From: a virus
Length of the DNA: 10,290 nucleotides
Virus genome (UHGV): UHGV-0301654
Strand: one strand, 5' to 3'
Under the pieces are notes generated by a model. That model ran no database searches and had not been told where the DNA came from. It saw only the letters and a list, made by a program, of their open reading frames with translations. Positions 3,534 to 4,050 of the stretch are shown one piece after another. The position numbers were made by a program, and so were the translations under genes. Numbering within the stretch: position 1 is the stretch's first letter; each line of letters opens with the position of its first letter.

Positions 3534-3711
3534 CGGCAGCAACGGTCGATTTCGCAAGAATATCCCGCCCGACTTTTGTCAGGGTTGCCAGGCTGGCGAC
3601 ATCATTCCCCGTAAAATACGGAAACCTGTCTGCCGCAGTAGCAAGCCCGGCCAGCGCCGTCAGGGTGGCATCTTTCGGTTGCTTAAGGGGCTGCGTTGAG
3701 ATAAGAGCCAG
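3534..3711 (-). pseudogene. remnant of tail-fibre constant part (Sc), 5'-truncated
   Basis: Reverse-strand frame contiguous with S'v encodes LISTQPLKQPKDATLTALAGLATAADRFPYFTGNDVASLATLTKVGRDILAKSTVAAVIEYLGLQE, the conserved box found just before the variable part in lambda Stf and Mu S-type fibres. An in-frame stop lies at 3712..3714 and there is no upstream start, shaft or N-terminal domain. Confidence 0.7.
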
Positions 3712-3733
3712 TCATTACAAATACCAGGATTTA

Positions 3734-3756
3734 GCCTCGCATTCGCGGGGCTTTTT
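3734..3756 (+). terminator. putative intrinsic terminator hairpin
   Basis: gcctcgc-attc-gcggggc (7-bp stem with one G-U pair) followed by ttttt. It lies exactly where the fibre constant part breaks off. A second perfect 9-bp inverted repeat (aaagccact...agtggcttt) sits at 3769..3794. Confidence 0.4.
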
Positions 3757-4050
3757 ATTGCCATTACAAAAGCCACTTCCTACAGAGTGGCTTTGATAAT
3801 GGCTTATACCCTACACGGGATAACTTAACTGATATCCCTTTTAAAGGATAAAGGTATTCAAGCCTGACACATCATGCGCTGTATCGTCGCCGTATTCCCG
3901 TATTAACAGAGACCGTAGCCCGACGGGGAACTCCTTCTGCGCGAGTGTGTGGGAATAATCAAAAACGATGCACACCGGGGTTACCGGGTACACATATTTC
4001 ATCATGCCAGCGAGTCCGGTTCTGGCACGGAAGAAACCGGACGTTATGAT

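Follow-up and report, generated by a model that had tools for sequence, protein, structure and literature searches.

The G segment of phage Mu, which is inverted by Gin, is known for its fibre and assembly genes in the order S, U, U' and S', the crossover sites gixL and gixR, and the sis enhancer. A second cassette of this kind is the P segment of e14 with its invertase PinE, which is said to have been described by Plasterk and van de Putte in 1985. The defective E. coli prophage e14 keeps both its own invertase and its own start codons, from which the chimeric fibres StfP2 and StfE2 arise, and its segment occurs in both orientations among sequenced genomes. The e14 P segment is also inverted in trans by PinQ, the invertase of another prophage, Qin (Kirigo et al. 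2025, PMC12529663). We analysed a stretch of 10,290 nucleotides (nt), UHGV virus genome UHGV-0301654 (the window), which contains a Mu-type invertible fibre cassette whose fibre gene breaks off close to two hairpins. Our reading, to which we give a probability of roughly 85%, is that this locus is a fossil left by ordinary prophage decay, in which a beheaded fibre gene and a cassette that has lost most of its invertase lie next to hairpins that are the terminators of a lysis module.

The cassette resembles the Mu G segment in gene order, in its gix-like crossover cores, in the first ~110 nt of its invertase gene, which are identical to gin, and in its variable fibre part, whose identity to Mu S is 70% across residues 61-396 of the open frame. 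Unlike Mu, it lies in the side-tail-fibre context of a lambdoid prophage, with an invertase of 64 codons and a constant part of 49 codons that lacks a start, so that the switch is left without an output. It is like the e14 P segment insofar as it is an invertible fibre cassette from a defective prophage of E. coli, occurs in both orientations and could be driven by the invertase of another prophage, here perhaps from a pinQ locus that probably lies just past the right end of the window. It has neither the start codons nor the invertase that e14 retains, however, and the e14 P repeats (TTGGTTTGGGAGAAGG) differ in sequence from those found here. Among P2-like phages, the remnant is 92% identical to residues 372-764 of P88 gp39, which has the same opposed pair of tfa genes downstream, and 72% identical to residues 281-673 of P2 H, whereas the baseplate-attaching and shaft residues of these proteins (1-371 in P88 gp39, 1-280 in P2 H) are missing. 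The hairpins in turn correspond to the lysis-cassette terminators of lambdoid phages and prophages (Ayreon, mEp460 and Kati; DLP12/Qin-type prophages), with 98-99.5% identity and the same position after holin, lysin, Rz and a small open reading frame (ORF). In contrast to the intact lambdoid phages, the lysis genes are gone from the window, and the hairpins abut an inverted fibre fragment.

The part of the window around the end of the fibre gene contains the following features. Here and below, the genome collection that we probed comprises 5,426 complete E. coli genomes, and the reference loci are those of strains AH62 (L002), 13C1065T (L003) and EC20-4B-2 (L004, the flipped form).

3538-3684, minus strand: surviving constant part of the fibre gene (Sc'), 49 codons beginning KQPKDATLTALAGL, 5' of the crossover repeat; 99.5% identical to 13C1065T (L003 10738-10928)
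3684-3685, no strand assigned: illegitimate recombination junction with a 2-nt TA microhomology, from alignment with the parental sequences; in 3 of the 5,426 genomes
3685-3699, plus strand: last four codons and stop (KGLR and stop) of the 50-amino-acid (aa) ORF that follows Rz in lambdoid lysis modules, from reference-locus alignment
3733-3757, plus strand: hairpin 1, resembling an intrinsic terminator, with a T5 tail on the plus strand, from folding and a terminator scan; contiguous with lysis genes in L002, L003, mEp460, Ayreon and Kati
3760-3803, no strand assigned: hairpin 2, a composite stem of 17 bp between an A-run and a T-run, from folding; a terminator is annotated at the equivalent site in Ayreon (MF807953)
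4051-4476, minus strand: DUF1398 gene (Pfam DUF1398, E = 5e-43; PGAP), whose transcript heads towards hairpin 2 and the fibre remnant

The fibre gene ends at 3684/3685. When aligned base by base, the window matches its fibre parent, 13C1065T (L003 10928-10738, window 3496-3685, with more fibre sequence further upstream), through position 3685, and it matches its lysis parent (position 8001 onward in both L002 of AH62 and L003) from position 3684 onward, the overlap being the dinucleotide TA. Protein homology to P88 gp39, P2 H, P1 S and D6 begins at the same place, with the K of KQPKDATLT, which is residue 10 in the open frame (nt 3684), and the break corresponds to residues 371 and 372 of P88 gp39 (764 aa), 280 and 281 of the P2 H-type fibre (673 aa), and 80 and 81 of the L003 ORF. 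Directly upstream of the break three intact relatives all have ...NELAAALGNDPNFATTMTNALAG, which is absent here; because all of them carry it, the cut lies inside a conserved block, between ...TNALAG and KQPKDATLT..., and not at a module boundary. The original prediction, made from the sequence of the window, had the fibre cut off at the hairpin cluster. Comparison with intact fibre genes, which it had proposed as a check, instead places the cut 48 nt short of hairpin 1, which takes 27 nt off what had been counted as fibre sequence.

We probed the genome collection with a 251-nt sequence spanning this junction. Three of the genomes contain the whole junction at 100% identity; they were assembled independently, and their sources are dog, chicken and fish gut. 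As a possible cause of the junction we considered action of the invertase at a secondary (quasi) crossover site and rejected it, the best 26-bp match to the gix core at either parental breakpoint being 12-14 of 26 positions, at the level of the shuffle mean of 12.2. Since the breakpoints are unlike any crossover site, we conclude that the junction arose by illegitimate recombination.

Read on the minus strand, the fibre frame begins with a leucine and two stops, followed by LALISTQPLKQPKDATLTALAGL... The two in-frame stops, TAA at 3717-3715 and TGA at 3714-3712, agree with the earlier description of a remnant preceded by an in-frame stop. From 3711 the frame is open for 396 codons, to its natural stop at 2521-2523, and includes the QPKDATLTALAGL box at 3681-3643. 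There are 59 codons between the stops and the crossover repeat at 3500-3537, in line with the roughly 60 codons of constant part that had been predicted, but only 49 of these (3684-3538) are fibre sequence. The first nine codons (3711-3685) are the neighbouring lysis module read antisense, the peptide "LALISTQPL" being the antisense of the last codons (KGLR and stop) and 3' flank of the 50-aa ORF following Rz.

No ATG, GTG or TTG occurs in this frame before the GTG at 3483, which is already within the invertible segment and has AGGA 5 nt on its 5' side. Searching the window by tblastn with four full-length or longer fibres gave no upstream exon and no frameshifted continuation of the remnant, residues 1-371 of P88 gp39 and 1-280 of P2 H not being found beside it, which leaves the truncation standing; the sole other fibre-like match in the window is on the opposite strand at 8756-9451. 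Neither the Stf N-terminal domain PF08400 nor Ala/Ser-rich shaft repeats were found in the 2521-3711 frame, and a scan of the minus strand from the DUF1398 gene to the junction found no promoter-like site. The original prediction that start, shaft and N-terminal domain are all missing thus holds at the remnant, as judged by tblastn, the reading frame and Pfam, but not for the window as a whole, which has fibre N-terminal (partial PF08400) and shaft sequence in one place, a separate truncated gene at 8183-9613 on the opposite (plus) strand, 4.5 kb from the remnant.

In the flipped genome, EC20-4B-2, the fibre frame is likewise open (382 codons) and lacks a start ahead of the crossover as well. 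With no start codon in either orientation no fibre is possible either way, as had been predicted: promoter, start codon, shaft and attachment domain are all gone. PGAP annotates window 2521-3684, in the identical sequence of three genomes, as "phage tail protein, incomplete, missing N-terminus", and the pseudogene status of the remnant is therefore already in public annotation, everything described here being a known kind of thing. A 274-codon ORF on the plus strand (2972-3796), antisense to the fibre remnant, spans the junction and both hairpins; it is unannotated in related genomes and is probably a chance antisense frame.

Both hairpins lie where the original prediction had placed two strong ones. 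Hairpin 1 is a stem-loop at 3733-3752 with an 8-bp stem (6 G-C pairs) and a 4-nt loop, followed by TTTTT on the plus strand (TTTTTATT). It folds at -14.9 kcal/mol (z = -2.9 against shuffles) and looks like a Rho-independent terminator, that is, a G+C-rich stem-loop followed by a U-tract on the transcribed strand. Hairpin 2, at 3760-3803, combines an outer stem of 7 bp with an inner stem of 10 bp at 3769-3778 and 3785-3794 (9 Watson-Crick pairs and 1 G-U pair) and folds at -24.9 kcal/mol, with z = -7.4 on the plus strand and -5.2 on the minus strand and none of 200 shuffles as stable. A scan of 3300-4600 found 2 terminator-like sites where 1.1 were expected, and since this count alone is not significant, it is the folding z-scores, together with conservation in thousands of genomes and in phages, that show the hairpins to be real. 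The hairpin half of the 251-nt probe is 100% identical in many genomes, and about 2,685 of the 5,426, roughly half, match at least part of it. Viable lambdoid phages also have this region, 99.5% identical in Kati and 98% identical in mEp460 and Ayreon, and in Ayreon an annotated terminator follows holin, lysin, Rz and a small ORF at the position of hairpin 2.

The gene order in AH62 and 13C1065T is essD, rrrD, Rz, the 50-aa ORF, both hairpins, DUF1398 and ynfO on the opposite strand, nohD and terminase, which places the hairpins between convergent transcription units. From this position and from their structure we infer that they are terminators native to the gap between the lysis genes and the DUF1398 gene that converges on them. 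In hairpin 1 the T-run lies on the plus strand and points away from the remnant, so this hairpin would belong to the lost lysis transcript and not to transcription bound for the fibre; hairpin 2 could stop the DUF1398 transcript on the minus strand and is likely to be a bidirectional terminator. The 4.5 kb rightward of 3684 is colinear with intact lambdoid prophages, running from the end of the lysis module through the hairpins, DUF1398, ynfO and nohD to terminase. The hairpins did not cause the truncation but arrived with the DNA that now abuts the fibre. At gathering thresholds over the window, Rfam has no RNA family at the hairpins, its only match being IS009 at 9956-10154. In the gap between DUF1398 and the hairpins there is an ORF at 3841-4005 on the minus strand, for which we considered and rejected an identity as a gnsB-like gene: it has no Pfam match and its sequence does not resemble GnsB.

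The window is part of a decaying lambdoid prophage at att-lambda of E. coli. Strains Z0117EC0098 and PK8566 carry a defective lambdoid prophage that is 99.9% identical to window 1-7173 and that lies between ybhB/bio and ybhC, the att-lambda site. In the three genomes with the fibre junction, as mapped at the loci L001 and L004, the terminase large-subunit gene is cut at the equivalent of window position 7173, where a truncated Rz gene adjoins it head-on. This is a second scar of the same rearranged prophage. At the other end, a diguanylate cyclase cargo gene adjoins window position 1 in L001 and L004.

The invertible cassette and the invertase stub to its left are made up of the following features.

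74-172, minus strand: 3' fragment of a tfa gene fused to the invertase stub, the scar of an earlier mosaic join; this junction is in 536 genomes
206-400, minus strand: truncated serine invertase (pin'/gin'), 64 codons followed by a stop; Pfam Resolvase, profile positions 2-73 of 145; PGAP WP_001378636, a 64-aa "recombinase family protein"
311-382, minus strand: enhancer-homologous stretch inside the invertase stub, identical to Mu gin at 72 of 72 nt and to the annotated P1 cin enhancer at 55 of 72
451-488, no strand assigned: invertase-proximal crossover repeat, gixR-like, with its 26-bp core at 456-481 (25 of 26 positions identical to Mu gix)
489-1425, plus strand: alternative variable C-terminus (Sv'); Pfam gp37_C; fused to Sc' in EC20-4B-2 and 13C1065T
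1428-1961, plus strand: assembly gene paired with the alternative end (U'-like); Pfam Caudo_TAP, E = 2e-36; PGAP WP_000972143
1990-2517, minus strand: assembly gene paired with Sv (U-like); Pfam Caudo_TAP, E = 7e-38; PGAP WP_001541481
2521-3499, minus strand: variable fibre C-terminus (Sv), at present in frame with Sc' and running to the natural stop; Pfam Gp34_trimer; 92% identical to P88 gp39 residues 372-764 and 86% to P7 Sv'
3500-3537, no strand assigned: fibre-proximal crossover repeat, gixL-like, with its 26-bp core at 3508-3533 (24 of 26 positions identical to Mu gix)

The two crossover repeats form a 38-nt inverted repeat (451-488 and 3500-3537) that flanks two opposed pairs, each consisting of a fibre C-terminus and an assembly gene, with the fibre C-terminal domains at 682-1425 on the plus strand and 2521-3499 on the minus strand. 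The matches of the two cores to gix compare with a shuffle mean of 12 and maximum of 18, and all of the differences are in the outer half-sites. The locus therefore still has inverted crossover sites of ~26 bp and two opposed C-termini, each with its assembly gene, and it is found in both orientations. It has no intact serine invertase (~185-195 aa, with a catalytic domain and a C-terminal HTH) next to the segment and no constant part with promoter, start and N-terminus, and because of these two losses we class it as a remnant of the Mu G / e14 P / P1 C family and not as a working member.

The invertase frame reaches a stop at codon 65, and the tfa 3' fragment is fused after 14 more codons, at about codon 79; with this stop and the deletion that follows, the invertase is dead. 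By homology to gin and cin, the stretch at 311-382 may act in cis as a Fis-dependent recombinational enhancer. All of the cis elements of a Gin/Pin-type switch thus appear to survive, unlike the enzyme and the output gene. Two other repeats were seen in connection with the cassette. A 29-nt direct repeat (508-536 and 9455-9483, 90% identical), with one copy in Sv', just past the crossover site, and the other close to where the second fibre gene ends, encodes QK(N/D)QNGADIP, a shared motif at the point where fibre C-termini are exchanged. An 80-nt inverted repeat (92-171 and 10100-10179, 93% complementary) consists of the 3' ends of the stub-fused tfa fragment and of tfaQ; it encloses nearly all of the window and could serve as a substrate for a large inversion by homologous recombination.

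Three features link EC20-4B-2 to the closest relatives of the window, namely the 3684/3685 junction, the invertase stub and the terminase/Rz junction, yet its segment 451-3537 is inverted. The exchange maps to the 26-nt identical core, the outer half-sites having stayed with their flanks. The segment of 13C1065T is also in the flipped orientation relative to the window. As genomes with opposite orientations have in common the stub and two further unique junctions, the flip came later than the loss of the invertase. Classically, the invertases Gin, Cin, Pin and Hin complement one another. Given that the crossover sites and the gin-identical, enhancer-homologous stretch survive, the segment should still be invertible by a Pin-family invertase in trans, and such an enzyme is most likely what drives the flipping. 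The pinQ gene that probably starts just beyond the right end of the window possibly encodes that invertase.

On our reading, a prophage side tail fibre would first have acquired a cassette of the Mu G-segment type, in the order constant part, gix-like site, Sv and its tfa, inverted tfa' and Sv', second gix-like site and invertase. One illegitimate event, at 2 bp of microhomology, would then have severed the fibre gene within a conserved block and attached its distal half, pointing the opposite way, to a lysis module at the module's 3' end. The incoming DNA would have brought with it the terminator hairpins, the convergent DUF1398 and ynfO genes and the packaging genes. The hairpins would act as they do in intact phages, hairpin 1 ending the lysis operon on the plus strand and hairpin 2 ending the DUF1398 transcript, and it would be a side effect that they now occupy the place of the fibre's former upstream sequence. 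A Pin-family invertase from elsewhere would flip the surviving segment in trans. The order of these events is our reconstruction.

Several observations weigh against this reading or blunt it. The U-tracts of hairpin 2 are short (UUUGAU on the plus strand, UUUUGU on the minus strand), and of the two hairpins the scan called only hairpin 1. The orientation probes found 135 genomes arranged as in the window and 211 flipped, counts that were made with an 80% coverage cut-off that would also admit loci with an intact invertase; it is the best 40 matches of each orientation search that include the stub junction, and the scar between tfa and the invertase stub is in 536 genomes of the collection. A probe for the 3' half of gin matches 2,900 of the 5,426 genomes, a figure for the collection as a whole, and an intact Pin gene in the three relatives is presumed. 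As to the origin of the junction, a simple inversion within one prophage, from the end of the lysis module to the fibre shaft, predicts a reciprocal junction (...CATTTTGCGCGCGGTA joined to CCCGCAAGCGCGTTAGTC...), which is in 0 of the 5,426 genomes, and we rejected this origin. In the three relatives the block from the hairpins to terminase is inverted with respect to those lysis genes that are left beyond it, which fits an intra-prophage inversion followed by a deletion. The right part of the window, with its full terminase, W, truncated portal, second fibre, tfaQ and pinQ, nevertheless misfits the simplest path of this kind. Inversion plus deletion and recombination between two prophages are both candidate origins.

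In principle, rare RecA-dependent exchange between the 38-nt repeats, in their 26-nt identical part, could account for the difference in orientation, or else flips that took place before the invertase was lost, and no invertase acting in trans would then be needed. Exchange confined to the 26-nt identical inner part is predicted by both mechanisms, and the intact invertase in the relatives is, as noted, presumed. We think this unlikely, though it is the least unlikely of the alternatives, since genomes of opposite orientation share the stub and two further unique junctions, which dates the flip after the loss, and since an identity of 26 nt is near the lower limit for RecA recombination. The crossover sites and the stretch that is identical to gin and homologous to the P1 cin enhancer are moreover preserved, and cross-action of Pin-family invertases is documented (PMC12529663). 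Much less credible is an assembly chimera at the junction, with an intact fibre gene in the actual genome. No complete genome of the collection reproduces the whole window, the best covering 70% of it, but the identical junction, at 100% over 251 nt, is present in three independently assembled genomes with consistent surrounding gene order. We give equally little credence to the hairpins being an inserted mobile element (a REP- or MITE-like repeat or the end of an insertion sequence) whose insertion cut the gene, or a programmed attenuator of the fibre. Two strong palindromes directly beside a truncation invite this explanation; the 4.5 kb rightward from 3684 is colinear with intact lambdoid prophages, however, the same hairpins follow Rz in viable phages, and fibre sequence beyond them, a target duplication and an Rfam family are all absent.

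The C-terminal fragment could also have been co-opted, being translated from an internal start (GTG 3483, or ATG 682 when flipped) with the aid of Tfa and serving the host, for example by blocking phage receptors, which is what the e14 chimera StfE2 is reported to do, with inversion in trans switching between two products. The frame is intact in both forms (396 codons here, 382 in the flipped genome), as are both tfa genes, AGGA precedes GTG 3483, and hundreds of genomes, with one orientation or the other, retain a cassette whose invertase is dead. There is also a precedent in cryptic prophage e14, where PinQ-driven inversion yields an anti-T2 protein (PMC12529663). We nonetheless consider co-option improbable. 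The scan found no promoter-like site upstream, and two terminator-like hairpins stand between the remnant and the nearest genes on the same strand; intact frames are expected after a recent deletion, and the remnant is still 92% identical to the fibre of a live phage; the truncation, in only 3 of 5,426 genomes, gives no sign of selection; and e14 has its own start codons, whereas the constant part here has none. By analogy with e14 StfE2, one might go further and imagine an orphan Mu-type cassette that is kept in E. coli because the Pin of another prophage flips it and its start-less receptor-binding fragments would serve the host, for instance by masking receptors. The missing promoter and start and the rarity of the junction make such a role for start-less fragments a long shot, and we retain the reading of ordinary prophage decay.

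The right-hand part of the window has scars of its own. The second fibre gene (8183-9613, plus strand) is also defective: at a junction at 8152/8153, the portal gene, cut after ~120 codons, runs partway along into a PF08400 domain ("prophage tail fibre N-terminal"), of which only profile positions 77-134 are present, and all of the head and tail genes between portal and fibre are deleted. Long Ala/Ser-rich repeats of families D1-D5 are present in this fibre gene, whose C-terminus is of the StfQ type. A Qin-type prophage in strain H7 has a tfaQ-pinQ end that is 100% identical to window 9487-10290, while to the left of ~9486 the best match changes to an att-lambda prophage (95.9%), a switch that suggests a recombinant fibre gene. 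The right end of the window falls on the last 5 nt of pinQ, at the pinQ stop, and pinQ itself therefore probably lies directly to the right, presumably intact. The Rfam match to IS009 (RF02111; 9956-10154, plus strand; 226 bits against a gathering score of 117), a candidate small RNA, is inside the tfaQ-like gene.

In itself this locus is of little importance, since it is a well-mapped case of prophage decay whose pseudogene had already been flagged by standard annotation. What the analysis corrects is the end of the fibre sequence, which is at 3684/3685 and away from the stop codons and hairpins, and the lesson is that hairpins beside a truncation can simply be the terminators of the neighbouring module. 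An invertible cassette that lacks its own invertase nevertheless occurs in both orientations among genomes that bear the same scars, and this difference fits the recent evidence that the Pin invertases of cryptic prophages act on each other's segments (PMC12529663).

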